From positions 26,112 through 90,111 of the forward strand of contig MU053271.1 of NCBI GenBank assembly GCA_013239625.1: 64,000 bases of DNA, in the 5' to 3' direction. Position numbers and translations under genes: made by a program. Positions 8,240 through 64,000 of the stretch are shown piece after piece (position 1 is the stretch's first letter; every line of letters begins with the position of its first letter). This DNA is from Lama guanicoe. Taxonomy: Eukaryota. The notes under the pieces are model-generated. The model searched no databases and was not told the DNA's origin. It saw only the letters and a program-made list of their open reading frames with translations.

Positions 8240-10570
8240 TCAAAAATAACTATTCAACACCCATTTATGATAAAAAAAAAAAAACTCACCAAAGTGGGTA
8301 TAGAGGGAACATATCTCAACATAATAAAAACTATATATGACAAACCTACAGCCAGCATAGTACTCAACGGTGAGAAACTCAAAAGCTTCCCACTTAAAAT
8401 CTGGGACAAGACAAGGCTGCCCACTATCACCACTCCCATTCAACATAGTCTTGGAAGTCCCAGCCACAGCAATCAGGCAAGAAAGAAATAAAAGGGATTC
8501 AAATTGGAAAAAGAAGATGTAAAATTCTCACTATATGCAGATGACATGATACTATATATAGAAAACCCTAAAAGGTCCACAAAAAAACTACGAGAACTAA
8601 TCAAAGAATTCAGCAAGGTAGCAGGTTACGAGATTAACATTCAAAAATCAGTTGCATTTCTTTACAGTAATGATGAATCAACAGGAAAAGAAAGTAAAGA
8701 AACAATCCCCTTTAAAATAGCACCCAAAGTAATAAAATACCTAGAAATAAATCTAACCAAGGAGGTGAAAGACTTATACACAAGAGAACTAGAAAACATT
8801 AAGGAAATTAAAGAATACTTAAAAAAACGGAAAGGCATCCCATGCTCTTGGATTGGAAGAATCAATATTGTTAAAATGCTCATACTTCCCAAGGCAATCT
8901 ATAGATTTAATGTAATCCCTATCAAATTACCTGGGACATATTTCACGGAACTAGAACAAATCATCCTAAAATTTATATGGAATCACAAAACACTCAGAAT
9001 TGCCAAAGCATTACTGAAGAAAAAAAGGCTGGAGGATTAACTCTTCAGGACTTCAGACAATATTACAGAGCTACAGTCATCAAAACAGCATGCTATTGGT
9101 ACAAAAACAGACATATGGACCATTGGAACAGAACAGACAGCCCAGAAATGACCCACAAACTTTTGATCAACTAATCTTTGACAAAGGAGGCAAGAACATA
9201 CAATGGAATAAAGACAGTCTCTTCAGCAAATCATGTTGGGAAAACTGGACAGCAGCTTGTAATTCACTGAAGCTAGAACACTTCCTTACACCTTACATAA
9301 AAATAAACTCAAAATAGATCAAAGACTTAAACATAAGACAAGATACAATATACCTAGAAGAAAACAGGAAAAACGTGATCTCAAAAATGTTCTCCTAGGG
9401 CAGTCTACTCAAGCAATAGAAATAAAAGCAAGAATAAACAAATGGGACCTAATGAAACTTACAAGCTTTTGCACAGCAAAGGAAACCGTAAGTAAAACAA
9501 AACAACCTACGAATGGGAGAAAATTTTTCCAAAAGATGAAACTGACAAAGGCTTGATCTCCAGAATATACAAGCAGCTCATATGTCTTAGTAAGAAAAAA
9601 ACAAACAACCCAACCCAAAAATGGGCAGAAGACCTAAACAAGCAATTCTCCAAGGAAGACATACAAATGATCAATAGACACAGGAAAAAATGTTCAATAT
9701 CACTCATTATCAGAGAAATGCAAAGCAAAACTACAATGAGGTATCACCTCACACCAGTCAGAATAGCCATCATTCAAAAAGTCCACAAATGACAACTGCT
9801 GGAGAGGCTGTGGAGAAATGGGAACCCTCCTACACTGCTGGTGGGAATGTAGTTTGGTGCAGCCACTGTGGAAAACAGTATGGAGATTCCTCAAAAGACT
9901 AGGAACAGACCTACCATATGATCCAGGAAGCCCCACGCCTGGGCATATATCCACAAGGAACCCTACTTCAAAAAGACACCTGCACCCCAATGTTCATAGC
10001 AGCACTATTTACAATAGCCAAGATATGGAAATAAATGTCCATCGACAGGAGATAAAGAAGAGGTGGTATATTTATACAATGGAATACTATTCAGCCATAA
10101 AATGACAACATAACACCATTTGTAGCAACGTGGATAACCCTGAAGAATGTCATTCTAAGTGAAGTAAGCCAGAAAGAGAAAGAAAAATACCAAAATACCA
10201 CTGCTCATATATGCAGTCTAAAAAGAAAAGAAAAATACAAATGAACATCAATACGAAACAGGAACAGACTCAAAGACATAGAATACAAACTTGTGGTTGC
10301 TGGGGGGAGGGGGTGGGAAGGGACAGACTGGGAATTCAAAATTTTAGATACTGACAGGTATACACAGAACAGATAAACAAGATTACACTGTATAGCACAA
10401 GGAAATGTATACAAGATCTTGTGGTAGCTCTTAGTGAAAGAGATTGTGACAATGAATATATGTATGTTCACGTATAGCTGAAAAATTGTGCTCTACACTG
10501 GAAATTGACACATTTTAAACTGACTGTAGCTCAATAAAATAAACTTTTTTAAAAAGTAGGTAAACAATAA
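8240..10570 (+). mobile_element. 5'-truncated LINE-1 (RT region to 3'UTR), frameshifted
   Basis: RT motif YADD in 8504-9040, C-terminal HCWWEC at ~9835, 3'UTR with AATAAA at ~10533. Confidence 0.95.
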
Positions 10571-15849: not shown

Positions 15850-15989
15850 ATATTCATCGACCGGTCACCAACGCTGGGAGAAAAAATGATCCTGTGCTGC
15901 TGAGCTGGCCCATCAGCGTGATCCCAGGGCACGGACAGGCTGATGGTTGTCTCTCCAAAGACTCAGATTCCTCGGTCTACTGCGTGGTC
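15850..15989 (-). pseudogene. COL12A1: COL12A1-like exon with two small deletions and mutated acceptor
   Basis: [43 protein letters not shown]|gtgagt; acceptor reads ac rather than ag; 140 nt versus 143 expected. Confidence 0.9.
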
Positions 15990-16630
15990 GTAAATAAATC
16001 AACGCAATAGAGTCAGTGGCCTGTCTGTGAGCAGGTGGACATGGGGGTGGAGGGAGGGGTATAACAGACCTGTAAGCAGGTCAGTGTCACTGCATCCAGA
16101 GGTTTCACCACTCTCTGGGGTGTTTCCTCCCCTGTGATATAATCCGCATCTCCTACTTTTCTCATGTGGACCCCTCAACAGTAGGAAGTGCTCCATTCAG
16201 AGCTACGGTTACGTGCTGAGCTTTTCGGGACAGGGACTGGGTTGGAGCCTAAATGTACAGACTGGGAGAGAACAGGATTTTAACTACTCCGACCATTTCC
16301 TGCTGAATGAAACACAGGCTGAGCCCTCACATTTCAAAAGTGCCCAGTTGGTGAGAAGACCCACTGCAGGGAGGAGAAGGGAAGAAACTTCTCCTTAACC
16401 CAGGTCCCAGATGAGGAAACAGCCCAGTGACACTCGGCCCAGTGACACTCACTCAGCCCAGAGGGCCCTCAGACTGAATGTGCACGTGGGAACCCGGGCA
16501 GAAGTGGGCTCCAGGCGTCCCCTCACCTGCGCAAGGTGGCAGCGGCTCTCAGCACCCACCTCAGCACCCACCTGCCCAGCCTTCCTCACTGAGTCACAAG
16601 GGAACTGGGTGGGAAGGATTTCAGCCTCAT

Positions 16631-16759
16631 GTGTTTGGCCCCGCGTGGGGCTGGGATTCTGCCTCCATCCGAGTGGAGCGCAGTGATGTTCATGGAATAG
16701 GGTGTGTCTGGAACCAGCTGCTCCAAGTGCGCCGTGGGGGTGTTCCCTGGCACCACAAC
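16631..16759 (-). pseudogene. COL12A1: COL12A1-like exon with 1-nt deletion and mutated donor
   Basis: ctccag|GTT GTG GTG CCA GGG AAC...; [32 protein letters not shown] then shifted NPSPTRGQT; donor atgagg instead of gtgagg. Confidence 0.92.
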
Positions 16760-17794
16760 CTGGAGGGGAGGACATGCCAAATTCTGTCTGGTAACAACCC
16801 AAATGCTTATTTACTCTTTTGTTAGCATAATAATGTTTATAGTGAAGGACTGAGCCCAGACTCAGCAGAAGCCAACCTCTGTGCTACTTCGTGACATCTC
16901 CCCGGGCCACAGCATTACATGCACTTTTCCCTCAGAAATTCCCTCTCCACTAAATCTGAGTACACACTTGACCCTTAGCAACCTCGACAACCTCCCATTT
17001 AGGTTCCTGGGGAAGGTTCTCAAATACAACATCCAGGGCTTACGATAGTGACCCCAAAGCACCCCGAATGTTAGAGACACTTCTCAGGGAAAGGTTTTTC
17101 TATTAAAATGGAGCTACTCCATGCGATGGACAAGGGCAGTGCTGTCTGAACATGTCCTGCCACACACAAGGGTGCAAATCAACACTTGGACAGGCTCAAC
17201 TTGTGTTTATCTTTGTCCATGGTCCCTGCTTCTTTTTGTAAAGTCTCATAAATTTACTTTCCCTCAGGTGTTCTGACACTCTCCCTACTCAAATTAGTCA
17301 TTTCTGCTCTCTCTGTTATTAATCTACTTAGAGAATGGAATAGTACTAAGCCAGATTGGGCAGTCTATTAAGAGCCAATGAAGGCAAACTTTTAGGTAGG
17401 GTCCTAACAAAGAAGTGTGTGTTACAATGAAAGTCCATATTGACAAGGTGTATCAACGACTTGCATTTACTACTGGGGTTTTTAACTCATATAGCTAATT
17501 TGCTTTTTCCCCAAATTTGCTTTTGCTTACTAACCCTACAGTTCATACCGTTACAATTTAATTCATCAAAAGCAATCACTTAATAAGCATTGTACATGGG
17601 CATGTTTGTGGCCTGTGTTCTCACAGGCTGCCAAACATGACACAAATATGAGACGAAGTTCATCAGGAAATGAGTGTGCCTGTGACCCAGGGCCACACCA
17701 ACTGACCTACTGTCCTGCACCAGCAACTACAGCAGGAGGCACCGTAAAATCTACAAAATTCTTCTGCCAGCTCTAAGGTTACAACAGTACTTAC

Positions 17795-17933
17795 AAGTTC
17801 CGGGGGCCTCGTGCTAGCCAGGGGAGCGCACACAACGCGGTACTGCGGCACTGGCCAGGGGCGGGGTCGAGATCGTCCCAGCTGTTTGGGGTCGGACTGT
17901 ACACTTGGACATCTCTGGCCAGTCTTCTCACCA
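17795..17933 (-). pseudogene. COL12A1: COL12A1-like exon with frameshift
   Basis: ttcctcag|TG GTG AGA AGA CTG GCC AGA GAT GTC CAA GTG TAC...; VRRLARDVQVYSPTPNSWDDLDPAPG then shifted frame PQYRVVCAPLASTRPPEL|gtaagt; 139 nt versus 143 expected. Confidence 0.92.
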
Positions 17934-19131
17934 CTGAGGAAAGAAAAGCCAACATGTATTTCTTACATCTATTTATACATGTCAAGCTTTTGTTATCACT
18001 TCCCCCAAACTTCCACTTTGTAGCAGGATAAAATACTGACCTCTTTAGACTTTGAATTATCTGCATTCAAAAGCAGATGAAAACTCTCCAAATCCACATT
18101 TAGCCAAACTTAGCCAACTAGGGCCTTGGTCTCTATGGAAGCTAAGTTGTTGCCAATAAAAACAAGGGAGTACAAGTAGTAGTACTGGGCTGGCCATAAA
18201 AGGACAAGGGACAAGGAGCAAGAGCGAGAAATTGGAAAAGAAGCTTCAGTTTTCCAGCACAGGTCATGGAGAGAGAGACAAGAGGATTCTACCATCTCCG
18301 CCTCTAAATGAGAACTGACAACACCGAGGACACCCATCTAACTGTGGCAGCTAGGTTAGCTGGTTTCAATCATTCATTTCTTATCATTCAACAGACACTG
18401 AATGTCTTCTGTGAGTCAAAGAAAAGGCAAATATAGGGAGAAATCAAAGATAACTCAGTTCTCAATTAACTGCCCCTACAGGGACTTAGAAAAACATGCA
18501 AATTAAATCCATATATTATCCCCAAACTCCATTTTACCAATAACATCATTTTTCTAGATCACTAATCTTTTGCCAAAAGAAGTCATCCACATTTGCTTTC
18601 TTTTAGCCATCAACACATAGATTTTTAAGCCAAATAAAATATTTAGAGGTATGCACCAAAGACTTTAAACAATACTACAAAGAATTGTAAAACCACTATA
18701 AACTGTTTTCCCAAGATGTTAATAGCAAATGAAAGCAGAGATTTTCAATGCCAAAAAGCACTTCATCAGCAGAGAAATGTGCTATCAAGTAACGTGACCA
18801 ACAGATTTCAACAACTGCCACTCAAAGCCAGTGACAAAACGCTGCTTCATACAAATTTATCGAGCACAAAGCAAAGCTCATGAACTTTTGTCAGTGACAG
18901 AGAATACTGGTAACAAATCCTAAAGTTAACACTTCAGAAGAATGTCATTTTTATTTCATATACTAAAATATTAACAATTGGTGGGGGTTGGGAGGTAAAC
19001 TATGTGTAACTGTTACATTTTTATTCCATCATTATGAATTTCCCAAATTTTCTTTATATGTTAAACTTTATGCTACACTAAAAAGCAAAATGCATCATGA
19101 AAACGCTAAATTTGTCTGCCTTCTTACTTCC

Positions 19132-19261
19132 ACATCCTTCCAGTGTCTGGTGTACACCCTCCATCGCCCTCAGGATAAAGGGGAACCATTGTAACAGTGT
19201 CTGGGGCATCTGGCTGCAGATTCCTATGAACGGCATCATTGGTATTCACAGGGATTGGCAC
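19132..19261 (-). pseudogene. COL12A1: COL12A1-like exon, donor mutated
   Basis: ttcag|GTG CCA ATC CCT...; reads [43 protein letters not shown]; 130 nt; donor reads ggaagt instead of gtaagt. Confidence 0.92.
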
Positions 19262-19672
19262 CTGAAGATTTTAATAAAATGTTAAGTACTTGATTTGAAA
19301 ACCTTGTACAAGAAATAATACTTTGAACAATCACTCAAAATATTAACTGAAGACCAAGTCAAGAAGCAGGTTCCGTAGTATTGGGACCTAAGGATATGCC
19401 CCCATATGAACTGTTGTTAAGAGTTGATGAAGGCCTCTCTGCACACAGCCAGCTCCTTCTTGAAAAGCCCCTAGAATGATTTGATCCCCCAGCCCCAGTC
19501 CCCCAAAAGTTCCCATCACCCAGGCACTGAGGCCCCAACCGACTACCCTCCGTCAAGTTCTACAGAAGAAACATGAACTCCTTCAGCGCTACGGTACACT
19601 AGTTAACTCTTGATCTCCACTTTGCAGTCTACAGCTGAAACTAACACACTTTTCCCTACAGGAAATAGTGAC

Positions 19673-19810
19673 CAGTTCCTACAGACCACCTGCTGTGGGT
19701 GCATAAAAGAGCTTCTACTGGTGAGGATTTCACTCTGTGTGCTCCCAGCGAACGTGCAAAGTGCTGGTGGAAGGGTCATACACTGAGGTTCCTCGCGGTA
19801 TTCAAAGGTT
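19673..19810 (-). pseudogene. COL12A1: COL12A1-like exon with 2-nt deletion and stop codons
   Basis: tttcag|AA CCT TTG AAT ACC GCG AGG AAC CTC AG(--)TG TAT GAC CCT TCC ACC AGC ACT... = [41 protein letters not shown]|gt; 138 nt versus 140 expected. Confidence 0.92.
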
Positions 19811-20117
19811 CTGAAATGCACAGAAAGCACATCACTGTGACTCTAACAACCCAGCACACACGAAGCCCAGGTTTACTGATGAGTCCTGGGAACCCTAGAA
19901 CACAGGATCCCTTTAGTAGGCACCCCGCAAATACCTGTTGAAGTAGTGAATAAAGGAAAAAAGGTCTGTGATTATCGGGTACATGTCTCATCCCTCCACA
20001 AGGTACTGTGGCCTCAGAGCATAGTTTGTTTGTGTTATCCTAGAAGGTAATAAACACCTTTCTCCAAGACCAGAGACAGATAACTCCAGTAAGGATATTA
20101 AAAACAATTTAGATCTT

Positions 20118-20262
20118 TGGGGGAGGGTATAGCTCATGGGTAGAGTGTATGCTTAGTGTGCACAAGGTCCTGGGTTCAATCCCCAGTACGTCCATTAAAA
20201 AATAAATAAAACCTAATTACTCTCCATTCCCAACAGAGACCAAAAAAAAAAAAAAAAACAAA
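20118..20262 (+). mobile_element. tRNA-derived camelid SINE (Vic-1-like)
   Basis: ggggagggtatagctca(A box)tgggtagag...gggttcaatccc(B box)...acctaattac and A-rich tail. Confidence 0.9.
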
Positions 20263-20385
20263 GATTAACATGCAATCTTAAAAGTTTAGCAAAACTCTGT
20301 GTCACCCCAGTGTTTCCAGTGGAAGATGTGATTTCATCCCCATGATGGTTTACTAAAAAAGCCACAGGAGTCCAGATTCACTTAC

Positions 20386-20515
20386 TGGTCTCGCCTCTTC
20401 CCGTCATGCAACCTCCTTCCGTATCAGGATACAGGGAGGACAGGGTGATGGTGTAAGGAGTGTCAGGCTTCAGCTTCTGCAGGACCACACTGTTCTGCTG
20501 TCCGCCTATCCTGGT
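20386..20515 (-). pseudogene. COL12A1: COL12A1-like exon, 130 nt, frame open
   Basis: ttactccag|ACC AGG ATA GGC GGA CAG CAG AAC...GAG ACC A|gtaagt; reads [43 protein letters not shown]; both splice sites canonical. Confidence 0.95.
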
Positions 20516-24600: not shown

Positions 24601-25849
24601 TATTCTAAGTCGTTCCCTTCCAAGCCATGAGAAAGTCACACAGTCTAGAATTACTATCAGAGTCACATCTGTGAGTCACCCAGCTGCCTGCACCAATTTG
24701 ACTACTGGAAATTCCTGATTAATGACATTTTTTTAAACACCAGAGCAAAAACTTGACCTGCCCCAAATGACCATTTTTTCTTATTTCACCATTTTTTTTG
24801 CTTTGGTTACCTATTATTTTCTGCAAAGAACACACAGGAAGTAAAATGAAAATAGTGATTTAATGTACATTAACCTCAAACCTGAATGCTGTTCCTTCCA
24901 AGGTGTGGGAAAGGGGAAAGGATTCTGTGGTGGTAGCTTTGAGGGAGTGAAAGACTCCTTTTTCGACGGGACTCTTGGGCTCCTTCAGGCCATGCTGAGA
25001 CACCAGGGGTTTTTTTAATAACTAATACAATTACTTCACATCTGCAACTAAGAGTCTTCTTGAAGTCACAGATTACCAGGACTGCGAGTTCCAATCAGAT
25101 ACACTGTCCACCAGGAGGCACAGTTACTGTGAGGAAAGCCCAAAGATCCCCCCAGCTGAGGCCCCTCGGTAAAGCCTTGTCTGAAGTTCTCCTCTGATGA
25201 CAGAAAAAGCAGGTGCCCGTTACATTTCCGGCTCCGAAACCACCCACAGCCTGCACTGGCAGCATTAATCACAGCAAAGAATCCCTGATGGTCACTTTAT
25301 TTTTACTCCATAGGAGCCAGGTAAGTCCTGAATCCGGAGACCTGCCAAGTAGCCATTCATGGGGGAAGCAACACACTGGTGGCCAGAACACTTTCTAAAG
25401 GAGAGCGAGCACCTAGGGAGCCGCTCTTTAGTTTCCAACACAGGTCGCCCCCTGGGGCTNNNNNNNNNNNNNNNNNNNNNNNNNNNNNNNNNNNNNNNNN
25501 NNNNNNNNNNNNNNNNNNNNGTGCCAGGAACACCCACCTGACCCAGCAGGGGGCCACCATGCATGCCGCCCCCACCCCTCGCTGGGAAGACTGTAATAAT
25601 TACAACTTTCGGCTACCTTTAGCCAACCAGCCCAGAACAAAACAACCNNNNNNNNNNNNNNNNNNNATCACGTGCACCCCACTCCACGTCTCTCCATGCA
25701 GCACGTTCTACAGGGTGGGGGTGCCAGGAACCGGGCACCCACCTGACCCAGCAGGGGGCCACCATGCATGCCGCCCCCACCCCTCGCTGGGAAGACTGTA
25801 ATAATTACAACTTTCGGCTACCTTTAGCCAACCAGCCCAGAACAACCGC

Positions 25850-26772
25850 CGCTGCCAGGGGAGACTCCTTACAGAATTCTAAGCCTCGCTCAGGAACTGC
25901 CCACAAAAAGCCTCCGTGCTCCCCTTCCACTTGGAGAGCCCAAGGCCACACTCCCGGGGCAGTCTGTCAGCCCCCTGGTCGCCGCGGACGTCACACAAGG
26001 CGTGAGTGGCTCCTCCAGCCTCCCCGCTGCGCCCCGCGCCCCTTTCGCGCAGCCCAGGCTCCCGGCGCCTTCCATCCATTCCCAAGAGTGGTTGTCTACC
26101 GGTCCCCGCTGGGCGGGGAGAGAGGATGCAGTTTGCTGCAGCCCCCACCCCCTCGCGGTACCTAGCCTGAGCAGGGCGCACAGCCCCTCGGCAGCCGGCG
26201 CCCCATCCCGGGTTTCCTCGGGTCCCCCAGCTCGTGGGGCCGAGCGGAGAAAGTCACCTCTCCGTGAAGCCCTGCTTGGTGCTCGCTCCCGCACCCCTGG
26301 GAGCCTCGTGAGCCAGGGCCCCGCGCAAGGCTGCCACGGGTGCCCCCGCCACCAGCAGCCCTAGCGGTGCCCCAGCTGTCCTTTTCTCCGCGCAGCCCTC
26401 GCCCCGCCTCCAAAACCCCAATGGCTCCCGCGTCCCCCACCGGGTCCTAGCGCGGCTTTGGGCCGGCAGCTGGCACCTTCCTCAGTGTAGACATTCTTGG
26501 GCTCTCCAGTTCAGCAGGTGCCCGTGGACATGGCCTGACCGCACGTCAGCCAGCCCGCCCAGGGATCCTCGCCGCTGCCGCCGCTCTGACCCGCTGGAGC
26601 TCCTTGCATGATCGAGCTTTATGGATGGCGCCTGCGCACTGGGCGCCCAGGAGGCGCCACGCATGGCACACAGATGGGAAGGCCAGCAGGAGACATCTGC
26701 AGAGGGGCGGGGCTCGCACCTGGGGGAGCACCAGGCTTCAGATCCTTTACCCTGGCACGCGCATTCACGGGC
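25850..26772 (-). promoter_or_regulatory. CpG island with candidate minus-strand promoter and first exon
   Basis: High GC and CpG density; GC box ggggcgggg 26704-26712; NRF1-like gcgcctgcgca 26628-26638; gccATG at 26531(-); donor-like GAAG|gtgcc after 26477. Source gene not recognised. Confidence 0.6.
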
Positions 26773-27720
26773 ATAGGCAGTATACTCCCACACATAAGTC
26801 CTGGCAATATATTTTTGAACCAGCTCCTGGAGTAATTGAAATAAAAGCAAAAATAAATAAATGGGATCTAATTAAACTTAAAAAACTTTTTTGCACAGAT
26901 AAGGATACCACCAACAAAATGAAAAAACCACCTACAGAATGGGAGAAAATACTTGCAAATGATGCGACCAAAAAGGGACTAATTTCCAAAATATAGAAAC
27001 AGCTCACACCTCTTAATATCAAAAAAAAGCAACTCAATCTAAAAACGGGGACAAGACCTAAACAAGCAATTCACCAATGAACACATACAAATGACCAATA
27101 GATACATGAATTGGCTCAACATCACTAATGGTCAGAGAAATGTAGATCAAAACTACAACGAGATATCACCTCACACCAGCCAGAATGGCCATCTTTATAA
27201 TGTCTACAAATGATAGATGCTGGAGAGGGTGCAGAAAAAAGGAAAACCTCTACACTGTTGGTTGGTTTGTAGACTGGTGCAGCCACTATGGAGGACAATA
27301 TGGAGGTTCCATGTGATCCAGCAATTCCACTCATGTGCATATACCCAGAGAAAATAAAATTCAAAAACATATGCACCCCAATGTTCACAGCAGCACTACT
27401 TACAATAGCCAAGATGTGGAAACAACCCAAATGTCCATCAACAGATGACTGGATAAAGAAGTTGTGAGACTATATACATACATATATATATATATACACA
27501 CACATACACACACATATACATATAAATACATACATACACACACAAAATGGAATACTACTCAGCCATTAAAAAGAATAAAGTAATGCCATTTGAAGCAACA
27601 TGGATGGACATGGAGATCATCATTCTAACTGAGGTAGGCCAGAAAGAGAAAGAAAAATGCCATATATCACTTATATGTGAAATCTAAAAAATAAAAAAAG
27701 GGGGGGACACAAGTGAACTA
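26773..27720 (+). mobile_element. L1 ORF2 3' end and part of 3'UTR with (TA/CA)n tract
   Basis: IEIKAKINKWDLIKLK, agatatcacctcacaccag, aaatgtccatcaacagatgactgg. Confidence 0.9.
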
Positions 27721-27990: not shown

Positions 27991-28121
27991 CTTTTTTGTT
28001 TGTTTGTTTTTTTGGGAGGGGGAGGTAATTAGATTTATCTGTTTTACTTTAATGGAGGTATTGGGGATTGAACCCAGGACCTCATGCATGCTAATAAGCA
28101 TGTGCTCTACCACTGAGCATA
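27991..28121 (-). mobile_element. tRNA-derived camelid SINE (Vic-1-like)
   Basis: Reverse complement of the 20118 element: T-rich tail, ggtaattag, ggggattgaacccagg, tgctctaccactgagc. Confidence 0.9.
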
Positions 28122-33230: not shown

Positions 33231-33504
33231 TAGGTGAATGAATTGTGGACATCCCCCTCAATGAGCATGTGCATTCCCACCCACCATGTTTTCCTAGGAA
33301 CAACCCCAGGCTCCTGTCTTGCTTCTAAGCCCTCACTGAAACAAAACCTTTTGGAACGGATGTGAGGATTCACACTTCATTTTTGGGCAAAGGCTCAAGA
33401 CAGTAATGTCTAAAAATAATCTACTTGCTCAGTTTAATAACTATAAACCATTGCTTTACTGAATGTGAATTACGCTAGGCCAATCTGAAAAACATTAAAG
33501 AACT

Positions 33505-35788
33505 AAGCTCCTAAAACCAATACCACAGAAATACAAAATATCATAACAGAATACTGTGAACAACTATATGGAAACAAACTGGACAACCTAAAAGAAATGG
33601 ACAAGTTTCTTAAAACATAATCAAGACTGAATAAGAAGAAACAGACCACTTGAATAGACCAATCACTAGAAATGAAAGAGAATTAGCAGTAATTAGCAAT
33701 TAGCAAAAACCTCCCTGCAAACAAAAGCCCAAGACCAGATGGCTTCACTCAGAAATTCTATGAAACATACAAAGAACTTACACCCATCCTTCTCTAACTC
33801 TAAAAAGACTGAAAAGGAATGAGTACTCCTAAACTCATTCTATGAAGCCACCATTACCCTGATACCAAAATCAGAGACACTACCAAAAACTAAAATTACA
33901 GGCCAATATCACTGATGAACATACATGTAAAAATCCTCAACAAAATATTAGCAAACAGAATCCAACAACACATAAATCATACACCGTGATCAAGCTGCAT
34001 TCATCCCCAGGGACACAAGGATTGTTCAAAATACACAAATCAATCAATGTGACATACCACAGCCACAAAATAAAGGACAAAAACCACATAGTTATCTCAA
34101 CACTATGACAAAAAAGCATGACAAAATTCAGCCATTTATGATAAAAACTCATAACAAAGTGGGCATACAGAGAACATATTTCAACATAATAAAAGCTATT
34201 TATGAGAAACCTATAGTCAGCACAATACTCAACAGTGAAAAACTGAAAACTATTCCACTAAAATCTGTAACAAGATAAGAGGCCCACTTTAACCACTTCT
34301 ATTCAACATGGTCCTGGAAGTCCTAGCCACAGCAATCAGGCAAGAAAAAGAAATGAAAGAGATCCAAACTGGAAGAGATGAGGTATAACTGTCATTACAT
34401 GTGGATGACATACTGTATATACAGAACCATGAAACCACCACACACACACACACAAAATCTAGATATATTAAAGAATTTAGCAAGGCAGCAACACACAAGA
34501 TTAACATACACAAATTAGTTACATTTCTTTACAATAACAATGAATCAACAAGAAAAGAAAGTAAAGAAACATTGCCTTTTAAAATTGCTTCCAAAAAATA
34601 CAATACGGAATAAATGTAACCAAAGATGTGAAAGATGTATATGTGGAAAACTACAAAACACTGACTAAGGAAATTAAAGATGACTTAGAGAAATGGAAAG
34701 ATACCCTATGACCTTGTATTAGAAGAATTAATATTGTTAAAATGGCCATACCTGCCCAGGGCAATCTATAGACTGAATGCACATCCCTATCAAATCGCCC
34801 AGGACAATTTTCACAGAACTAGAACAAATCATCCTAAAATTTATATGGAATCACAAAAGACCCAGAATTACCAAAGCATTACTCAAGAAAAAGAACAAAG
34901 CTGGAGGAATATCCCTCCCAGACTTCAGGCAGTACTACAGACCTACAATCTAAACAGCACGATATTGGTACAAAAACAGACATACGGATCAATAGAACAG
35001 AAATGAGAGCTCAGAAACAAATCCACAAACTTTTGGTCAATCAATATTTGACAAAGGAGGCAAGAACATACAATGGAGGGAACAGCCTCTTCAGCAAATG
35101 CTGTCGGGAAAACTGGGCAGCTGCATGGAAATCAATGAAGTTAGATGACTCCCTCACACCGTACACAAAAATAAATTCAAAATGGCTTAAAGACTTAAAC
35201 AGAAGACTAGAATCTACAAACCTCTTAGAAGAAAACATAGACAAAACATTATCTCACATAAATCTCAGTAACGTTCTCCTAGGGCAGTCTACCCCAGCAA
35301 CAGAAAGAAAAGCACAAGTAAACAAACAAATGGGACCTAACTGAACTCACAAGCTTCCGCACAGCAAAGGAAACCGCAAGCAAAACAAAAAGACAACCGA
35401 CTGAATGGGAGAAAATACTCGCAAATGATTCGACTGACAGAGGCTTCATTTCCAGACTACATAATCAGCTCATACAACTTAATAACCAAAAAACAAACAA
35501 CCCAATCCAAAAATGGGCAGAAGACCTGAACACGCATTTCTCCAATGAAGACATACAAATGGCCAACAGGCATATGAAGAAATGCTCAGTATCTCTCATT
35601 ATCAGATAAGTGCAAATCAAAACTACACACAAGTCAGAAAGGCCATCATTCAACAAAAGCCCACGAAGGAGAAATGCTGGAAAGGCTGTGGAGAAAAGGG
35701 GACCGTCCTACACTGTTGGTGACAATGTAGTTTGGCGCAGCCACTGTGAAAAACAGTTTGGAGATTCTTCCAAAGACTGAAACTAGAT
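33505..35788 (+). mobile_element. L1 ORF2 fragment lacking the 3'UTR, fused to GC-rich module copy 1
   Basis: [25 protein letters not shown] remnants, DD motif at ~34405, ends at ggagattcttccaaagactgaaactaga with no poly(A). Confidence 0.9.
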
Positions 35789-37405
35789 TTGCCAAAACAT
35801 TTTAATCTTGGGGGCAGGCCAATGAGTTCCCAAAAGCCCGGGCCTCATCTGTTACTCCAACCTGGAGGGTCCAGGGAGGGCTACAGTTGCCAGGCAGGTG
35901 CACCTAAGCAGGAAGGCCATGGCCTGAGGGCCAGTCGGAGGTGCTCCAAGGCCAGTCGGGCGCCCTCCCACCTCCTGGGGCTGCTCCCACTTTCCCAAAC
36001 CCACGTGTGAGCGGCGATGAAGACACCGGGGTTCAGTAACTACTAATGGCGGGGGCGATCCACCATAAACCAGGGCGGGGCCCTGGACCCCCCTCAGGGT
36101 CCTAACAGGCCACGTGGCCCGGGCCTCACCTACGCAGCCCTCCGTACCTGTGCGCCTTCCCAACGCAGCCCAGGCCTCAACCACCGGCTCCCCGATCTGC
36201 GCGCCCCCTTTACCTGCCAGGCGACAGCAGCACAGGCGAAGGCACGCGGTGGCCCAGACCCCAGGCCGTGTTCCTCCTCTGGGAGCTGGGCCAGGAGCAC
36301 TCGGCTCCGGCCCAGCTTCCACACGCTCTGAGCGCGGTCCCGCGTCTTCGCGCTAGCGCCTCCGCGTGCGCGCCCCTCCCCCTGCCGCTGGCAGCACTGA
36401 TGCTCGGGCTGGGGCTCCCGCACTATGGGACACTGCGAGCGGGGCCAAGAGGAGCCAAGCCCGGCCATGCGAGGCCAGGCCGTGGGGTGGTGGGGCTGGC
36501 CCACCCCGTGGCCCAGGACTGGCCAGCTGGGTTCCCAACCCCAATGCCCCCACCCAGACACCAACAGGGTCCCAGCACCCATCACAACCACCACAGGCCC
36601 CGGGCCAGGCCGCACGCCACAGTCCCATTCCCTCCACTGGCCGCCACACAACCCCCTCACCCCCCCGTCACGGCCCCCGCACCCCACCCCGGCCAGGCCT
36701 GATTCCTGACCTGATCCCCAAGACAGGGCTCCTTCTCCTCATACTGAGGTCCCCCCCAACACTATGCCCTACTAGGTTCTAAGCTACAGCCCCTGCAAAC
36801 AAGCTGACCCCTCATGCCTCACCCCGGGTCCCCTCACCCCTCACCCCAGGATTACCCCCACCCCTCAACCGGGTCCCCCTACTCCGAGCGCCCCTCACCC
36901 CAGGACGGCCTCCTCACGCTTCAGCCAGGTGACTTCCACTCTGACTGGACCCTCACTCCTCAACCTGGCCCCCCTCACCACGGGATCCCCTCTCACAACG
37001 ACTGCACCCCTAACCCAAGCTGACTCCTCTCACTCCTCACCCTACCGGGGGTGGGGCAGTCTGTGCTCAGGTCATCATAGTCACAGCCACCAGACAGGGA
37101 TCCCAAGCAGCGCGGGGACACACGGCCCAGTGTCTGAGGCTCCTCCGGGGCGCCACGGGTGGGGCTGGAGGCTGTGCCAGTTCCTACCAGAGCGCCCTGC
37201 ACCCCCCAGCACCTCTGTGCCCAGGGCCTCATCTGAGCAAGGGGGTCAGGGTGGTCCCGGGCCGCAGGCCACTCGCCACTGGGCCTTGGGTGGGTGATAG
37301 CACACGTGGTGATCCGAACACCAAGGGCGGCAGGCCCTGGGCACAGGGACCTGCCAGGATGAGCATGCGGCCCCAGGGAGGGCAGCAGGCAGTGGTGGCA
37401 TCCAC
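35789..37405. repeat. GC-rich dispersed module, copy 1 (block A 35789-36420, block B 36420-37405)
   Basis: Collinear similarity to 58478-59020 and 63080-63710 (block A) and to 56996-57890 and 63710-64000 (block B), e.g. gcaggaaggccatg, cctcacct, ttcctcctc...ccaggagcactcggc, ctaagctacag...caagctgacccct. Confidence 0.92.
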
Positions 37406-38499
37406 GCGTGCCCATCCTCCTCTGGCTGGGATGGCAGATCCTAGACTTGGGTCTCCTGCAATCTGGGACACCCATAAAACTGGCTTCGAGATTCCTCCGT
37501 TTGATACAACTCCCTCCTAATGACCTCTCTAACCTGAACCAGATGGGGAAAACTTCACCCACATAATTCTGAATATGCTGACCTTGTCCACATAGTACAA
37601 AGTAGAGGTCTAGAAAATCTAATTTGAAGTCCTATTTTCCTTTCCTTAGAGTATGGCAGAGAAAATTCCTTAAACCTTCTGAGGTCACATACTTGTAGCT
37701 CTGCAAATCTGTAACATCTCCCTTCCCTGTCTTTTATTCTAAAATAGGTTTGTTCCCTGAGAACTTTCAGTGGCCTCCATTCTCCCAACTTTTTGAGGAT
37801 GGTCAGCTGGAAGTCCGGCTCCCTGCTTGCATTCTCTGTGTGGCTGGCAAAGTCATTCCTTCCCCTGTGGCCATCCCCACACAATGGCCTCCATCTTTCT
37901 ATTCATCAGAGTCACATGCTTTACAGCTTAAGGACAACTAACCACCTAAGACCAGAATTCAATCTCTTGTACCTGAAGACCCTGCTGCTTCCTCATTAAC
38001 ATTCATGCTGTGAGGGACCCCAAATGGATTTGCTTCCTGAAATTATCTTTTCTTTCAGACTAATGTTGATGAGAAAAAAGTCTTGTTTGCAAAATGGAAT
38101 CAGAGCTTCTATGTTGATGTTTTCATTTAGATTATTCTGCTCTTATTTCTTGCTTTCTGCTTAATTCAGTATTGGGGACAGTCTGAGGAAAATGTCTTCA
38201 GAAATAAACACTGACACAGTCACACCAAAACAGATCAGGAGACTTTCACCTGCTGGTGTGTTGTTTCATTCTGCAGAGCACCTGGGCAATTACTAGAATC
38301 AGGGAAGTGTGGCTTTGAAAATAACTGTTACAGCATTTTTCACTAAGCTATACAGCTTTTACCATATAAAGATGAAGTGTTTCAAATATGGACTCCAAGA
38401 ATTGTAAAGAGCATCAGCTCACCTCTGGCTGCAGAATATGACTTTCCCACTCTCTCTGTGATTCTTCTCCACAGGTCTTACAACACACACTTTCCAGAA

Positions 38500-42120: not shown

Positions 42121-42559
42121 TATAAACCTCTTAGAAGATATAGGCTAAACATTACCTGACATACATCTCAGCAATGTTCTCCTAGGGCAGTCTACCCCAG
42201 CAACAGAAAGAAAAGCACAAGTAAACAAACAAATGGGACCTAACTGAACTCACAAGCTTCCGCACAGCAAAGGAAACCGTAAGCAAAACAAAAAGACAAC
42301 CGACTGAATGGGAGAAAATACTCGCAAATGATTCGACTGACAGAGGCTTCATTTCCAGACTACATAATCAGCTCATACAACTTAATAACCAAAAAACAAA
42401 CAACCCAATCCAAAAATGGGCAGAAGACCTGAACACGCATTTCTCCAATGAAGACATACAAATGGCCAACAGGCACATGAAGAAATGCTCAATATCTCTC
42501 ATTATCAGATAAATGCAAATCAAAACTACACACCGGTCAGAAAGGCCATCATTCAACAA
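42121..42559 (+). mobile_element. Isolated internal L1 ORF2 fragment, near-identical to 35215-35656
   Basis: Shares private changes with that copy (aaacaaacaaatggg insertion, loss of atgaggtatcacctca, gattcgactgacagagg); no 3'UTR or poly(A). Confidence 0.92.
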
Positions 42560-50545: not shown

Positions 50546-50622
50546 CAGCACCCGGAAGTCCACCCCACCAGTCCGGAAGTCCACTCCACCAGTCTGGAAG
50601 TCCAAGGCACCAGTCTGGAAGT
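50546..50622 (+). repeat. 21-bp minisatellite, about 3.6 units, carrying ETS-type CCGGAAGT/CTGGAAGT cores
   Basis: cagcacccggaagtccaccc|caccagtccggaagtccactc|caccagtctggaagtccaagg|caccagtctggaagt. Confidence 0.85.
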
Positions 50623-54370: not shown

Positions 54371-54453
54371 TAAATTTTATGTGAAAAAAGAGAAAATTCC
54401 ACTGGCTTACTAATGTGTAAATGAAAAATAAATTCCCACTAAGATGAATACCA

Positions 54454-54938
54454 TGGAATACTACTCAGCCATAAAAACCGACAACATAATGCCATTTGCA
54501 GCAACATGGATGCTCCTAGAGAATGTCATTCTAAGTGAAGTAAGCCAGAAAGAGAAAGAAAAATACCATATGAGATCGCTCATATGTGGAATCTAAAAAA
54601 CAAAAACAAACAAACAAACAAAAACAAAGCATAAATACAGGACAGAAATAGACTCATGGACAGAGAATACAGACTTGTGGTTACCGGGGGGGGGCGGGGT
54701 AGAGGGTGGGAAGGGATAGACTGGGATTTCAAAATTGTAGAACAGATAAACAAGATTACACTGTATAGCACAGGGAAATATACACAAAATGTTATGATAA
54801 ATCACAGAGGAAAAAATGTGACAATGAGTGTGTATATGTCCATGTATGACTGAAAAATTGTACTGAACACTGGAATTTGACACAACACTGTAAAATGATT
54901 ATGAATCAATAAAAATGTAAAATACTTAGGAAAAAAAA
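54454..54938 (+). mobile_element. Young 5'-truncated L1 3'UTR with perfect 13-bp TSD
   Basis: TSD aagatgaatacca at 54441-54453 and 54939-54951; AATAAA and A-tail present. Confidence 0.95.
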
Positions 54939-55361
54939 AAGATGAATACCAAGTTCCCTAGACTCTCCATGAAGCTTAGGGTCTGCCTTTATTAAATGAA
55001 AATGCTGGGTTCTAGTGGGGGACTGTTTGGGCGCCAGCCTCACCTTGGGTAAAAGACTCAGGCATCGCAGAGAGGGCCATGTCTCAGTCCCAGGGGATTC
55101 ACAAGAGGATGGGGAAAGGGGAGGGCAGAGGTGCTGGCCCCATGATATTACCTGGAACTCTTCCCCACATGTTCTGGCTAAAACCACTAAAAACTATTCC
55201 CAGAAGAAAGCTAGAATAGCTCCTCCAAGTCCAACAAATCATCAAAGCCCACCACACCCAGGCAGGCCTCCCTGATAACACCTCCTCTGCTTTCTTAGGA
55301 CAGTGTGGCACCACTCCTCAGGTCCCCCATTATTTACTGTACTATAAAAAGTTTTTACTTT

Positions 55362-56995: not shown

Positions 56996-59020
56996 ACCTG
57001 CGGCCCGGGCCGGCTGGGTCCCCAACCCCAACATCCCCACCCCGCCACCGACCAGGTCCCAGCACCCAACTAATACCACCAGCGGCACGGGCCAGGCCAC
57101 AGCCCCCAGCCCCACTTCCTCAGCTCACCTCCGCCCCATCCCCCGTCACAGTCTCCCCACCCACAGCCAGGCCTGGTCCCCAACTGGACCCCCAAGACCG
57201 CTCTGCTTTTCCTCACACGGAAGGTTCCGCCCCCACACTCTGCCCCTTGAGTCCTAAGCTACAGTCCCTACAAACCAAGCTGACCCCTTATGCCTCACTC
57301 CAGGTCCCCCCACCATCCAGAGATGATCCCCTATTCCCGGGATTACCCCCTACCCCTCATCCAGATCTCCCCAACTAAGAGCGCCCCTCACCCAGGGACG
57401 GCCACGTCACTCCTCAGCTGGGTCACTCCCACTTCCCAGAGGCCTCTCACCCCGCAGCCTGTCCCCCGTCACCACAGGATTCCCCCCTCACTGCCATTGC
57501 ACCCCTACCGGGGCTGACCCCCTCACCCTGCCAGGGGCAGGATGGTCTGGGCCTGGTCACCATGGCGACAGCCGCCAGATGGGGATCTTGTGCAGTGCGC
57601 GGGCACACAGCCCCGTGTCCTGTGTCTAAGGCTCCTCAGAGCAGTGCACGGGAGGGTGGGGTGGGTAATAGAGGCACTAAGAATTGCCACCATGACGCCC
57701 TGCCTACCCAGGGCCTTATTTGAGCCAGCAGGTCAGGGTGGTCCTGGGCTGCACACTGCTCAACAGTGGGCCCTGGGTGGCTGATGGCCCGGATGGTGAA
57801 CCGGACACCAAAGGCGGAGGCCCTGCGCACACGGACCTGCGAGGGGGAGGGTACGGCGATTCTGGGGATGGACAGCAGGCAGCGGCAGCAGTGGGGGCTA
57901 GGGGCGGCCCTGCTAAAGACAATCAAGTTGCTCCCATCACCCCCAAGGCCTGGCCTGGGGGAGGCCTCTTCTGCTCCAGCTTCATGGACCGCACTTCCCC
58001 CTGTCAGCCTCCTCCCGGGAGGCGGGCAGGGTGTGGTCAGTGGAGGCTGCAGTGGCGATGGTGAACTGGGGCTGCCCCTTGAGAGCACGGGGATTTGATC
58101 GCATTTCCCCGTCACTGTCACCACCCCGGCACACTGACTGCACCATGCCCTCCTCCCAGGAGCAGACTGACCCGTAACCTGTGACCTGCGGATGTGGGGC
58201 AGCAAAGGCCGCCCCCAGGACAGGACGCGGGGGAGATGGGAGCAAATCGACAGGCTCCCAGGGGCAGACCCCTCTCCCCGCTGCCGTCGCTGCCGCCGCC
58301 CCCGCACCCCGACAGCACCACGTCGCCTCCCAGAAGCAGGCTGGCCGCGAGTCGTGCACCCCGCGAACATAGGGGAGCAGCGGCCACCCCAGTCCAGGCA
58401 GCGGGGGAATAGGGAACAAACCCAGGGGCTCACACAGGGAAGCAACCATCCCCCCGCGGCGGCCCCGTGAGCGCACCGCACCCACCTGCTGGGAGCAGGC
58501 CATGACCCGAGGGCTGGTCAGAGGTGTTCCGGGGCCGTCCAGCATCCTCCCACATCCCGGGGCTGCACCCGCTTTTCCAAACATGGGTATAAGCGGCAAC
58601 GAAGACGCGGGGCTCAAGGACTACTAATGTGGGGGCTGGGGGGGTGGGGCACCACGAGCCAGGGCGGCGGCCCGAACCCGCCTCAGGGTCCTAAGGGGCC
58701 GCGCGGCACGGGCCTCACCTCTGCAGCCCTCCCTGTGCGCCTCCCCAAGGGTACAGCCCACGCCTCACCCGCCGGCTCCCCGACCTGCGCGCCCACAGGA
58801 GCGCCCCCTTACCTGCCCGGCAACGGCACTCGGCGGCCCAGACCCCAGACCGCGTTCCTCCTCCAGGAGCTGGTCCAGGAGCACTCGGCTTCGGAGGCGC
58901 GACCGTCCAACACGCTCTGGGCAATTCCCGCGTCTGCGCATCTGTGCGTCCTCGCGCATGCGCGCCCCTCCCCCCGCCAGCAGCGCGGATGCTTGGCCTT
59001 GGCTCCTGCTGCAAAGGGAA
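56996..59020. repeat. GC-rich dispersed module, copy 2 (block B 56996-57890, extra block C 57890-58478, block A 58478-59020)
   Basis: Same blocks as copy 1 in permuted order; CpG-rich; perfect NRF1-type palindrome gcgcatgcgc at 58954-58963. Confidence 0.92.
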
Positions 59021-62000
59021 GTGGGGACTATAGTAAATGCATTACATTTTATTTTTGTTATATGAAATGGAGTGGAATAATTACAAGCAAAATAACATTT
59101 GTCACATAAATGAATGTGATCAAGGTACTCATTTGTATTAGAAAAACACTAAGAGATTTTTTTTCATATTTCAACATGATGTAGCATTTTACAAAACTTT
59201 GAAAAGAATTTTCTTAAAATGAGAATTGACTATCACATCACTTAAATACTGTTTTTCAATGTGAAATCGAAGGAATTTTTATAAAATGGCTTGTGAGATT
59301 GTATGAAAAGTTACTTTCGAACTTACATTCCAAGTAGCTTTAAAAAGAGTAAGGATGAAATATTTATACTTATTTGGTGAGCTGAGTACATAGAATTTTT
59401 GTATGGCCAATTTCATTTAGACAATTTTTAGTATAATTTTAGGATTTTGATGTAGTTTTCAATGTATCACTTATCATGTACATGGGGTTTTGTTCTTCAT
59501 TGGCTCTTTAGAGAAAAAAGTTAAAGTTTTATTCATTCATGGATTGATCCTAACTTGTTTGTTATGTTATTGTATCACAGATGTTTTCTAGACATAGTGA
59601 TATAGCCTAAAATCTACATCACGTTATTTTTATAAAAATAATGTAAAGTGACAGACTGATTTCACACAATAGAAACAAACTTTAGCATCACAGTTTTAAA
59701 AAGTCTTTGTAAGTATACAGTAAAATCGTACTTTATTTCTTTATAGTCAAACAAAAGATCTCTGAATGAAGATTCAGAGATTTCTTGGTTTTTGTCTAAA
59801 TTTAAATTGCCCTCTACTGTCACAAACATGTACTGCTGACAAAGAGAAAATTTGACAAGTATGAAATCAAAGTCTAGACAGTGAGGAATGGAAGAGAACT
59901 AAGAGAGGTAATGGTGCTCTGCCCTGGGGCAATTCAGTTTGTAATGTTCTAGCAGTAAATAGATGCACCCTCACTCCAAGTTAAACGTTACTTAAAATTA
60001 TTTGTAAGTTTATAAACTGTTGCTTCATTGCTTCTTTTCTTTTTCCTTAGCTTTGGTTTTAAAACTGACATTTCACTTTGGTGTCATTTACATTTTACTA
60101 TAATAATCTGAACGGTGCGTATTACGACTGTCAGGATAAAAGTTAAAACTACCCATATCCTGATATTTTTATTTCACTCTTGAGGAATATTGTTTAGACG
60201 GCTTTTCCCCCATCTTTTTCAATATCAGAACATTTTAATTTTAACTAGGAATTATATGTACTTGAAATGAAAAATATTCATCATTACTCTGAAAGAATAA
60301 AGCTAAGTAATCAGTTGATACAGTGTGGGGGGAAAAAAATCCAGACTTTTAAAAATATCATGCAAACAAGTGGTTGCCTATTTAAGTTCACTCTTAAAGA
60401 AGGTATTTAAACATTAAGAAGACAGTTGTAAGCGTGCTCTGTGTGTTTAAGTGTAAGCTTGGTACAATCTTTCAATTAAAGTCAGTGACCTCCCCCCACA
60501 ATTTTTGCCATAAGAAATTCAGGCTAGTCAATAATGCTAAGTTGTATTTTGCAATGTCCTACAAAGTTGTGAAACTTGAGGTTAGTGACAGACATAAGTG
60601 AACAATTTTTGAAATGGTTACTGACATGTTTTATTAAAGCACTGGATGGTATATTTTAAAAAGATAACATTTTGATTGAATTTTAACTTTTTGTAATAAA
60701 TCAATAATTCGAAGTGAAATTAAAGAAGCACTGATGTAACTAAGGGATAGGAAAGCTCACAAGTTGTCAAGTGTCCAGCACGTGTAACAGGTCTTGGCTA
60801 ACTAGCTCCATGAAATACTTGGTCTCTATTTCAAGCAAGAACAAACTAGAAATATAAATAATAAGTATAAAAATGAATAGAAATAAATAATTGGGGGAAG
60901 AGTTTACATAAAAATCAAGGTTTTTATAGCTCTTATGTCAGATACATGTAGAGACAGTTTTTGAGTTTAATAAGCCAGTCAGGACTTCAGCTGTCACTGG
61001 CGGGTAGAGAAGCCCAGAGAGCTAGTTTCCAGGAGCGCAGCCCTCAGGCAGCCTCCCTGTTCCCAGTGCTTTTCTTCTCTCTGCCTCTTAAGCTCCTCTG
61101 GTTGATTTCTAACTTTTTCACATCCCAAATGTCCAAGTTGCCTTCTGTGAGGAAGAAGGTCATTCAGACAGCACTTAGTGTTGATGCTTTCCTGACATGA
61201 AGGGTTATAGCTGTCAGGGGGATATGAGCGCTTCCAAACAAGCAAATGGACACATGAATGAGAGAGAGAGGCCAAACTTACCCAAGGTTGGTGGTTCTCC
61301 GGCGGTGGTAGAATTCAGAGGTGATTTGGAGAAAGAGAAGCTTGTTGGATAAAATAACGTTACCTGCCATCAAAGTTAAAGGCTGGCTCTGTTCGAAGCA
61401 AATAGCACACCAGTCTTCTCAACTGTCTGACAAAGCCCGGGGATCTAGTATATCTAAATACTTCCTCTGGCTGTTTTGAGTACTTAAGGGCAAATCTACT
61501 AACCCAAGTATATACTTCAACCTAATTTCTGTGGAATCGCCATTTCTCTTTATCTGTGCTCAGTTATATTCCACTATTTGGAAACAAATTGCATAGGTAA
61601 TATTAATCCTATCCCATAAAGATGTGTCCACATTTAAAAAAAAAAAGTCTAATGCTATGGTATCCTAAATGACCAACTAAACAGTACTTCTCTTTCTGTT
61701 GCTTTTTTAGAATCAACTCTTCTCTTCTGAATTCACTTTAAGATAGTCTAATTTCTAATTAATCTAATCTAATTTATAATAGATCCTTGTTTTCTGGTGT
61801 AAGTACTGTTCATCATTATAAGTCAGTTTAAGAAAAGTTTAAATCAAGGGGTTTGATATCCTCTGGCCAATGATGAGCTCAGGTAGGCCCATGGAATTCT
61901 TTCTTCTAACAAAAGGAATTCTGAGTTAAATGTTACAAGACAGAAAAAAAAAATTGGCTCCCTGAAGAGATTAGTTTTTATTTCCTATTACAGGGAACCT

Positions 62001-62199: not shown

Positions 62200-63079
62200 G
62201 TTTAAAAACAAGAGAGGGACAGCTCAATGAAAAATCTCAACAGTAAAAAAATAAATATTCCAATTAGAAAATTGGCAGAAGATTCAGAGAGACATTTCAC
62301 AGAAGAGGATATACAAGTGGCAAATAAGCACATGAAAAGATGTTCAATATCATTAGCCATTTGGAAATCACAAATTGAAACCATGATGGGATATCGCCTA
62401 TAGGAAGAATAAAATAAAAAGTAGTAGCAACACCAAATGTTGGCAACTGTGCAGAGAAACTGCATGACTCCTACATTGCTGGTGCAAATGAATGTAAAAT
62501 GGTTCAGCCACCCTGGAAAACAGTTTGGCAATTTGTCATTAAAAAACAAACTTACATACATCTCAAAAATTTTCTCCTAGAACAGTCTACCCAAACAATA
62601 GAAATAAAAGCAAGAATAAACAAATGGGACCTAATGAAACTTACAAGCTTCTGCACAGCAAAGGAAACCATAAGCAAAACAAAAAGACAACCTACGGAAT
62701 GGGAGAACATTTTTGCAAATGAAACCGACAAAGGCTTGATCTCCAGAATATATAAGCAGCTCATACGANNNNNNNNNNNNNNNNNNNNNNNCAAAAATGG
62801 GCAGAAGACCTACAAGCAATTCTCCAAGGAAGACATACAAATGATCAATAGGCACATGAAAAAATGTTCAGTATCGCTCATTAACAGAGAAGTCCAAATC
62901 AAAACTTCAATGAGGCATCACCTCCTCACAATGGTTGGAATGCCCTTGGTTCTACAGACACACAACAAAGGCTGAAGAGGCTGTGGAGAAAAGGGAACCC
63001 TCCTCCACTATTGGCAGGAATGTAATTTGGTGCAGCCACTGTGGAAAACAGTAGGGAGATTTCTCAAAACACTAAAACC
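62200..63079 (+). mobile_element. Old L1 ORF2 fragment (62200-62552) followed by a younger L1 ORF2 fragment (62553-63079) fused to module copy 3
   Basis: Younger part reads [41 protein letters not shown] and closely matches 9380-9730; ends gggagatttctcaaaacactaaaacc with no 3'UTR. Confidence 0.88.
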
Positions 63080-64000
63080 AAACTCTCCAAAACCATTTGT
63101 TGACCTCAGGGGCAGACGGACAACCTCCCAAAGACCAGGGCATCTCACGTTTATTCCACCACAGGTCGCCTGTGACCGGGAGGGTCCAGGGTGACATGCA
63201 CTTGCTGGGCAGGACCACCTAAGCAGGAAGGCCATGACCCCAGGGGCAGTCGGAGGCGCCCTCCTACCTCCTGGGGCTGCACCCGCTTTCCAAAACACGC
63301 CTATGTGCAGCAGCAAAGATGCCAGTTTCAGTGAATACTAACGGGGGGGGCATCTTAATCACGGTTGCGGGCCGAAACCCGCGTCAGGGCCCTAACACGC
63401 TGCAAGGCCCGAACCTCACCTACGAACTCCTACCTCTACGCCTCCCCAAAGGAGCACAGGCCTCATCTGACGGCTCCACGACCTCCGCGCACCTTAGATG
63501 CATGGCGAAGGCAGCCAGGTGAAGACACATGGCGGCCGAGACCCGGAGACGCGTTCCTCCTCTAGGAGATGGTCCAGAAGAAACCGGCTCCCGCTCAGCT
63601 TCTAAAGGCTCTGCGCGGGTACCAGAGTACGCGCATCAGTGCGCACACGCGCATACGCGCCCCTCCTCTTCACGCCTGCAGCTAAGACCCTAGGGATGCG
63701 GATCCTGCTGTACCGGACATGCGACTGCGGCACAGTGAGGAAGACAAGGGTTGGCTAGGAACGGGCAGTGGGGGTTGGGCAAACGGCCGGAAGGGACGGC
63801 TGGGACCCAAACCATAACGTCCCCACCAGCACACCAACCAGGCACACACACAACTACCGGAACGGGCCACACGACATCCACAAAACCCAGTTACGCAGCT
63901 CATCTAGGCCACGTCCCAGGTCACTGTTTCCACACCCACAACCAAGCCTCCACCCAAACAAGACCCAGAAAACCTGTCTGCTTTTCCTCACACGAAAGAT
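63080..64000. repeat. GC-rich dispersed module, copy 3 (block A then block B, runs off the window end)
   Basis: cacctaagcaggaaggccatg, ctcctggggctgcacccgcttt, cctcacct, gcgttcctcctc and tctgcttttcctcacacg shared with copies 1 and/or 2. Confidence 0.9.

Follow-up and report, generated by a model that had tools for sequence, protein, structure and literature searches.

A candidate promoter and first-exon module joined to unrelated gene fragments in camelid genomes

We analyzed a 64,000-nucleotide stretch of Lama guanicoe DNA (contig MU053271.1, positions 26,112 to 90,111; here called the window), the best protein matches of which are camel and alpaca models. Self-comparison revealed three GC-rich modules, referred to as copies 1, 2 and 3, that probably represent a dispersed promoter and first-exon cassette moved by duplication at the DNA level. 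Two GC-rich blocks in degenerate tandem make up the module; in minus-strand direction, B precedes A. The L1 sequence beside it looks like a passive fossil neighbor rather than the vehicle that moved it.

Architecture of the GC-rich modules

In copy 1, an L1 fragment is followed by a non-L1 head (35795-35913, no strand assigned) with homology to 63090-63227 only, by block A (35914-36421, minus strand), a CpG-island core with a GC content of 0.70 and a CpG observed/expected ratio (o/e) of 0.68, and by block B (36521-37400, minus strand; GC 0.67, CpG o/e 0.34). Its last element (37398-37471, no strand assigned) matches 36358-36433 (alignment score 54, maximum 41 in 500 shuffles) and is what remains of the end of another block A, a sign of a former A-B-A tandem. 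Copy 2 (57008-59009, minus strand) is circularly permuted, with B at 57008-57890, a block C at 57891-58496 and A at 58497-59009; it has no head, and its donor is intact at 58813/58812. Copy 3 (63090-64000, minus strand) comprises the head (63090-63227), A (63228-63710) and the start of B (63793-63998) and is cut by the window end, its right end lying outside. The permuted orders A-B-(A relic), B-C-A and A-B suggest that B and A once formed a tandem. Identity among the module copies in the window is 66-82% (73-82% for block A), which makes them too old for the usual definition of segmental duplications (>90% identity over >1 kb). Multiple copies of an L1-anchored composite had been proposed in an earlier note on this DNA; three modules are indeed present, but only two carry the L1 junction, as copy 2 has neither head nor junction.

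Several further features were recorded. Block C of copy 2 contains, at 57878-58294 and 58109-58483, an inverted repeat (65% identical, ~420 nt; 57878-58294) and a 200-nt direct repeat, which we regard as traces of fold-back or internal duplication. Directly after copy 2, GC falls abruptly from 70% to ~30% in AT-rich, intron-like DNA (59030-60900) with a possible short exon near 60051-60117 (plus strand). Seven N gaps occur in the window, four of them within L1, suggesting a short-read-type assembly. A 125-nt duplicate (25521-25640 and 25721-25845, 96% identical) between two N gaps is probably an assembly duplication. A 5S/U2 gene array was considered and rejected: Rfam gave only two tRNA matches in the window, both in SINE-like sequence. 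These SINEs, at 20118-20230 and 28030-28120, are tRNA-derived elements of camelid type (family Vic-1).

A junction shared by two copies

The homology to L1 ORF2 stops at the identical base in copies 1 and 3 (35794/35795 and 63089/63090), 6-10 nt later than had been noted, and gives way to the same non-L1 head; the two heads align with a local score of 59, whereas none of 500 shuffles exceeded 35. This shared stop base and common head indicate that the junction arose once. The upstream flanks of the two copies are unrelated. In a tree built from the final 140 L1 bases, none of the four branches was supported, and the four derived L1 sites common to copies 1 and 3 all lie within ~15 columns of the junction; an exact 21-mer that they have in common was given no special weight. 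Two other origins of the head were rejected: as a decayed continuation of L1 it scored 20, a value reached by 152 and 203 of 500 shuffles, and for the end of block C of copy 2, 86 and 179 of 500 shuffles scored as high.

As the earlier note had stated, no poly(A) follows the junction, with no A-run of at least 6 found within 680 nt to the right of copy 1. The target-site duplication (TSD) check that it had suggested likewise yielded no TSD-like 6-8-mer common to both flanks of copy 1 or copy 2. Copy 2 adjoins an older L1 (56004-56990) at an ORF2 position other than that in copies 1 and 3, a contact that is unremarkable because L1 makes up ~28% of the window. Two 5'-truncated young L1 insertions elsewhere (1871-2825 and 54443-54950), with apparent TSDs and poly(A) by eye, serve as ordinary controls for real insertions.

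Ages and patches of the L1 pieces

The L1 ORF2 fragment of copy 1 (33480-35794, plus strand; 3' end cut off) is antisense to the module exons and sits in the predicted intron between the block A donor and a COL12A1 cassette. The earlier note had each L1 changing character partway along. For copy 1 this did not hold, its Kimura two-parameter (K2P) distance to the L1 at 8.3-9.9 kb being 0.15-0.21 in all five segments of 34130-35795. Changes at 35275-35656 (plus strand) that had been thought private to copy 1 recur in an isolated L1 ORF2 fragment at 42121-42559 (plus strand), that part of copy 1 being nearly identical to 42165-42559. Over 35273-35570 (298 nt), the two differ by one mismatch and have the same 19-nt deletion, with five mismatches in the next 84 nt and nine in the preceding 58.

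In copy 3 a change of character was found. Its L1 (62560-63089, plus strand) consists of a young-like patch (62601-62865), which differs from the L1 at 9.4-9.9 kb at 10 of 242 nt, and a diverged part (62866-63089), which does so at 44 of 224 nt (Fisher p=1.5e-7). The stub to the left of the patch is again more diverged (5/41 versus 10/242), a weak difference (p=0.049). An older L1 (62245-62538) precedes this piece ~515 nt out of register, ending at reference-L1 position 9893 where the copy 3 piece begins at 9378; the left edge is therefore not a homologous crossover. The internal change at ~62866 is in register, but surrounds an assembly gap, as a 23-nt N gap (62769-62791) lies inside the patch.

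Between copies 1 and 3, K2P is 0.23 for L1 (last 112 bases; 108 non-CpG sites), 0.30 for the head and 0.29 for block A. Such similar depth on either side of the junction is as expected for one old duplication, and the distance of 0.04-0.06 for the young patch places the patch much later than that event. A Camelus ferus model, which may be an ortholog or a close paralog, agrees with copy 1 in 50/55 and 33/39 residues, so that the split of copies 1 and 3 would be several times older than this comparison. By block A, copies 1 and 2 are closer to each other (0.15) than copy 1 is to copy 3, though the junction is common to copies 1 and 3; copy 2 may have lost the head, conversion may have acted, or copy 3 may have changed faster. 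Either gene conversion or the filling of gaps with reads from similar L1s would fit the patches in both copies 1 and 3. For the later, local L1 switches, we lean somewhat toward gap filling in a short-read assembly; gene conversion is plausible at lower probability, and a late L1-L1 exchange is improbable.

CpG retention and predicted splice sites

Block A has kept its CpG content in all three copies (CpG o/e 0.68, 0.77 and 0.83) despite 18-27% divergence, whereas block B has values of 0.34-0.37. The splice donors of the module lie on the minus strand. Exon A, as in model EPY77445.1, spans 36214-36327 (minus strand) with donor GGCAG/GTAAAG at 36214/36213, and a modeled exon in block B (37205-37041, minus strand) has donor AGG/GTGAGG. 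Copy 3, with the highest CpG o/e, has lost the main donor. Copy 2 has an exactly matched NRF1-like motif and an RFX-like motif. L1 lying mostly antisense is expected within a transcribed unit, and 17 of 20 L1 segments >80 nt are on the plus strand, antisense to the modeled transcript, although these counts are not independent, as they include pieces of one insertion, and minus-strand L1 at ~3.5-5.5 kb is under-recovered.

Between copy 1 and the COL12A1 exons lies a second CpG island (25750-26780; GC 0.68, CpG o/e 0.64) that bears no relation to the module and abuts an L1 piece at 26792; it could be the true promoter. At 50552-50622, a 21-nt tandem of 3.4 copies carries in each unit a CCGGAAGT/CTGGAAGT core that we take to be ETS-like.

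Camelid gene models with the module

In predicted models of four camelid loci, homology to the module breaks off at the GGCAG/GTAA donor (36214 or 36213). The C. ferus model EPY77445.1, a 'hypothetical protein', joins exon B (50/55 amino acids identical), exon A (33/39), the exon at 20515 and sequence from 15615-15442, in collinear order over 21.8 kb of the window. Blocks B, A and B occur in XP_072816843.1 from a 96.8-Mb contig of V. pacos (alpaca). In XP_032329732.1 (C. ferus, 27.7-Mb contig), B and A are followed by a further exon, presumably KLHL2-like. XP_074209745.1 (C. bactrianus, 37.4-Mb contig) and XP_064334160.1 (dromedary) contain A twice and then PRSS47, which matches Pfam Trypsin (E 3e-14). 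The contigs with module-bearing models measure 1.7, 27.7, 34.6/37.4 and 96.8 Mb and come from four camelid species (three of Camelus, and alpaca); the models join the module to different captured fragments (a COL12A1 exon, PRSS47 and others). They support the earlier suggestion of a promoter-like cassette dispersed in camelid genomes. The RefSeq-type models have several isoforms, as given by annotation only.

The protein-model searches returned only five locus-level models with the module. Searching exons B and A against longer proteins gave no match among 242 candidates, and one frame of the copy 2 exon gave three matches to representative proteins, one of them real and two dropped as repetitive chance matches. 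No Pfam family was found in models P0007, P0043 and P0044. The reading frame of block A differs between models (two frames in all), and copy 3 contains a stop and lacks the donor; the module is therefore no conserved coding exon. Directly before block A, residues 1-66 of P0042 (C. bactrianus LOC141575137) form what we take to be a KHDC1-like N-terminus, for which Pfam gave only MOEP19 at E=0.065. Atlas and PDB searches confirmed neither the KLHL2 nor the KHDC1 name. KHDC1 and COL12A1 lie next to each other on human 6q13, a possible lead to the source of the module.

A share of 0.60-0.71 of the words of 35770-37480 occurred in 18 of the 24 sequencing runs listed (5 organisms, 7 studies), in contigs and as presence only; in two RNA runs it was 0.14-0.15, likewise a word share only. 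Motif scans gave no match in metagenome contigs and none in viral contigs.

A COL12A1 cassette downstream of copy 1

On the minus strand, 15.7 kb downstream of copy 1, lie six decayed COL12A1 FN3 exons with introns kept (15864-20515; at 20515, 19795, 19261, 17937, 16771 and 15974), which contain stops and frameshifts. The same derived first-exon start was present in all 18 camelid partial models examined, and the 12 models with a BLASTP match of at least 55% begin at residue 1706-1710 of a COL12A1 protein. The cassette is multi-copy (proteins P0004-P0006, P0017 and P0021), occurring on contigs of dromedary (24.9, 57.4 and ~70 Mb) and alpaca (55.6 Mb); three dromedary models are near-identical (136/137, 186/197 and 126/137 amino acids).

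In alpaca ANKRD26-like models (1164-1377 amino acids), the N-terminus consists of the COL12A1 cassette seen in the window. Eight isoforms are listed, with FN3, ankyrin, CCDC144C and DUF3496 domains, and a camelid-specific chimeric gene of COL12A1 cassette and ANKRD26-like parts is possible. In the alpaca isoforms, the six residues that precede the cassette could be derived from the 3' end of block A with a one-base shift, a weak hint of a link. No ANKRD26 exon was found within the window. A Pfam search of 246 stop-free frames of at least 45 amino acids outside L1s (20.7-26.8 and 37.5-62.2 kb) gave no further gene fragment; two weak matches below the cutoff were taken as chance.

Discussion

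In the reading that we favor, the module would be a low-copy repeat of camelids in which a decayed B and A tandem provides a CpG-island promoter region and 5' exons on the minus strand. Segmental duplication would copy it at the DNA level, along with its introns and the sequence upstream, and at every new site the block A donor would splice to whichever gene fragment lies downstream, here a six-exon internal piece of COL12A1. The L1 would have inserted in antisense into the intron that follows exon A; a single ancient deletion or duplication breakpoint would have joined its ORF2 to the head, and copies 1 and 3 would owe this join to one duplication long before the split from Camelus ferus. More speculatively, the module may be a camelid core duplicon of a germline promoter and first exons that repeatedly captured unrelated gene fragments and founded at least one expressed camelid-specific chimeric family, FN3(COL12A1)-ANKRD26, with a block A paralog as its first exon; we put this forward tentatively.

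Tandem and permuted units would also be seen in a degenerate GC-rich macrosatellite without a promoter role, riding in pseudogene-rich blocks while annotation pipelines pick cryptic splice sites in it, and in alpaca such blocks are described as gene fragments between GC-rich repeats (PMC13751797). This origin appears unlikely given that block A has retained a CpG o/e of 0.68-0.83 after 18-27% divergence, against 0.34-0.37 in B, that models of four loci have one donor in common and that the L1 pieces are strand-biased. An RNA-mobilized L1 chimera or non-autonomous retroelement, with the GC-rich module as a new 3' end of an L1 transcript, would account for the 5' to 3' order of L1 and module along the plus strand. 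Copies 1 and 2 have no TSD and copy 1 no poly(A), the right end of copy 3 lying outside the window; splice signals and modeled exons are on the minus strand, and the linked COL12A1 fragment keeps its introns. These observations largely refute such a retroelement and leave it barely credible.

The earlier note had favored another vehicle, in which homologous recombination or template switching carries the L1-module junction into further L1 copies. One junction at two places with unrelated upstream flanks is what this would produce, as is the in-register passage from young to diverged L1 at ~62866, and LINE-LINE non-allelic homologous recombination, documented in human for L1 pairs >4 kb with >95% identity, could account for that passage (PMC4344489). 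Here, however, the L1 spans 0.5 kb with 80-86% identity at the junction, and the left edge of copy 3 is out of register. The copy 1/3 distance (0.23-0.30) contrasts with that of the patch (0.04-0.06), which encloses an N gap and has a more diverged stub to its left (weakly so); the L1 of copy 1 has no switch, copy 2 has no junction, and the paralogs found elsewhere are tied to gene fragments. Taken together, this makes junction hopping very unlikely. Apparent L1 subfamily switches beside N gaps call for long reads before any mechanism is proposed.

If dispersal of a promoter and first-exon cassette by DNA-level duplication is correct, the module would provide an old camelid case for comparing the origin of new genes in duplication hubs, one cassette feeding COL12A1, PRSS47 and probably ANKRD26 fusions. 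It would also account for odd camelid annotations such as 'collagen alpha-1(XII)-like' and ANKRD26-like proteins with FN3. No name for the cassette, as the earlier note had anticipated, and no published description of the module or of a COL12A1-ANKRD26 fusion was found in the literature searched.

Seeds of mosaic duplication that carry a promoter are known chiefly from primates. Camelid pseudogene-rich blocks are already in print: those named in alpaca carry NEK10, ATF5, FMN2, ACTB and ABHD17A and are said to be absent from camels (PMC13751797). Our region resembles them in its multi-copy gene fragments between GC-rich repeats in camelids. It differs in that the module has models in three Camelus species as well as alpaca. 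Set beside the long homogeneous arrays of the alpaca VpaSat satellites, the units here stand at most two in a row and are 20-30% apart; the two primers for VpaSat13 (1 of 13 pairs) had no match at up to three mismatches, and the full consensus set may match. Expansions of the ANKRD26 family lie at artiodactyl breakpoints (PMC4141111), and the alpaca ANKRD26-like models begin with the COL12A1 cassette of the window; the accessible text of that paper has no occurrence of camel, COL12A1, KHDC1, PRSS or KLHL2.

LCR16a/NPIP is a primate core duplicon in which a recurring GC-rich seed lies within mosaic blocks on several chromosomes (PMC7419210). The camelid module, with three copies in the window and models of further camelid loci, may likewise be a recurring, GC-rich seed, and it has lineage-specific gene-fragment flanks and fusion transcript models, the core-duplicon trait of such flanks with fusion transcripts being seen here in gene models only. 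In contrast to LCR16a/NPIP, its copies in the window are only 66-82% alike and the seed looks like a promoter with 5' exons; the expanded coding family under positive selection that marks LCR16a has no counterpart here, given the two frames, the stop and the lack of Pfam matches. As it has no coding-family feature and is older than the segmental-duplication cutoff, we assign the module to no named family. HYDIN2 exemplifies promoter adoption by a duplicated gene (PMC5345166). Like HYDIN2, the region has duplicated internal exons of a large gene, here COL12A1, behind a putative foreign promoter and first exons; unlike HYDIN2, one promoter-like module stands before several unrelated fragments, and the local COL12A1 exons are decayed.
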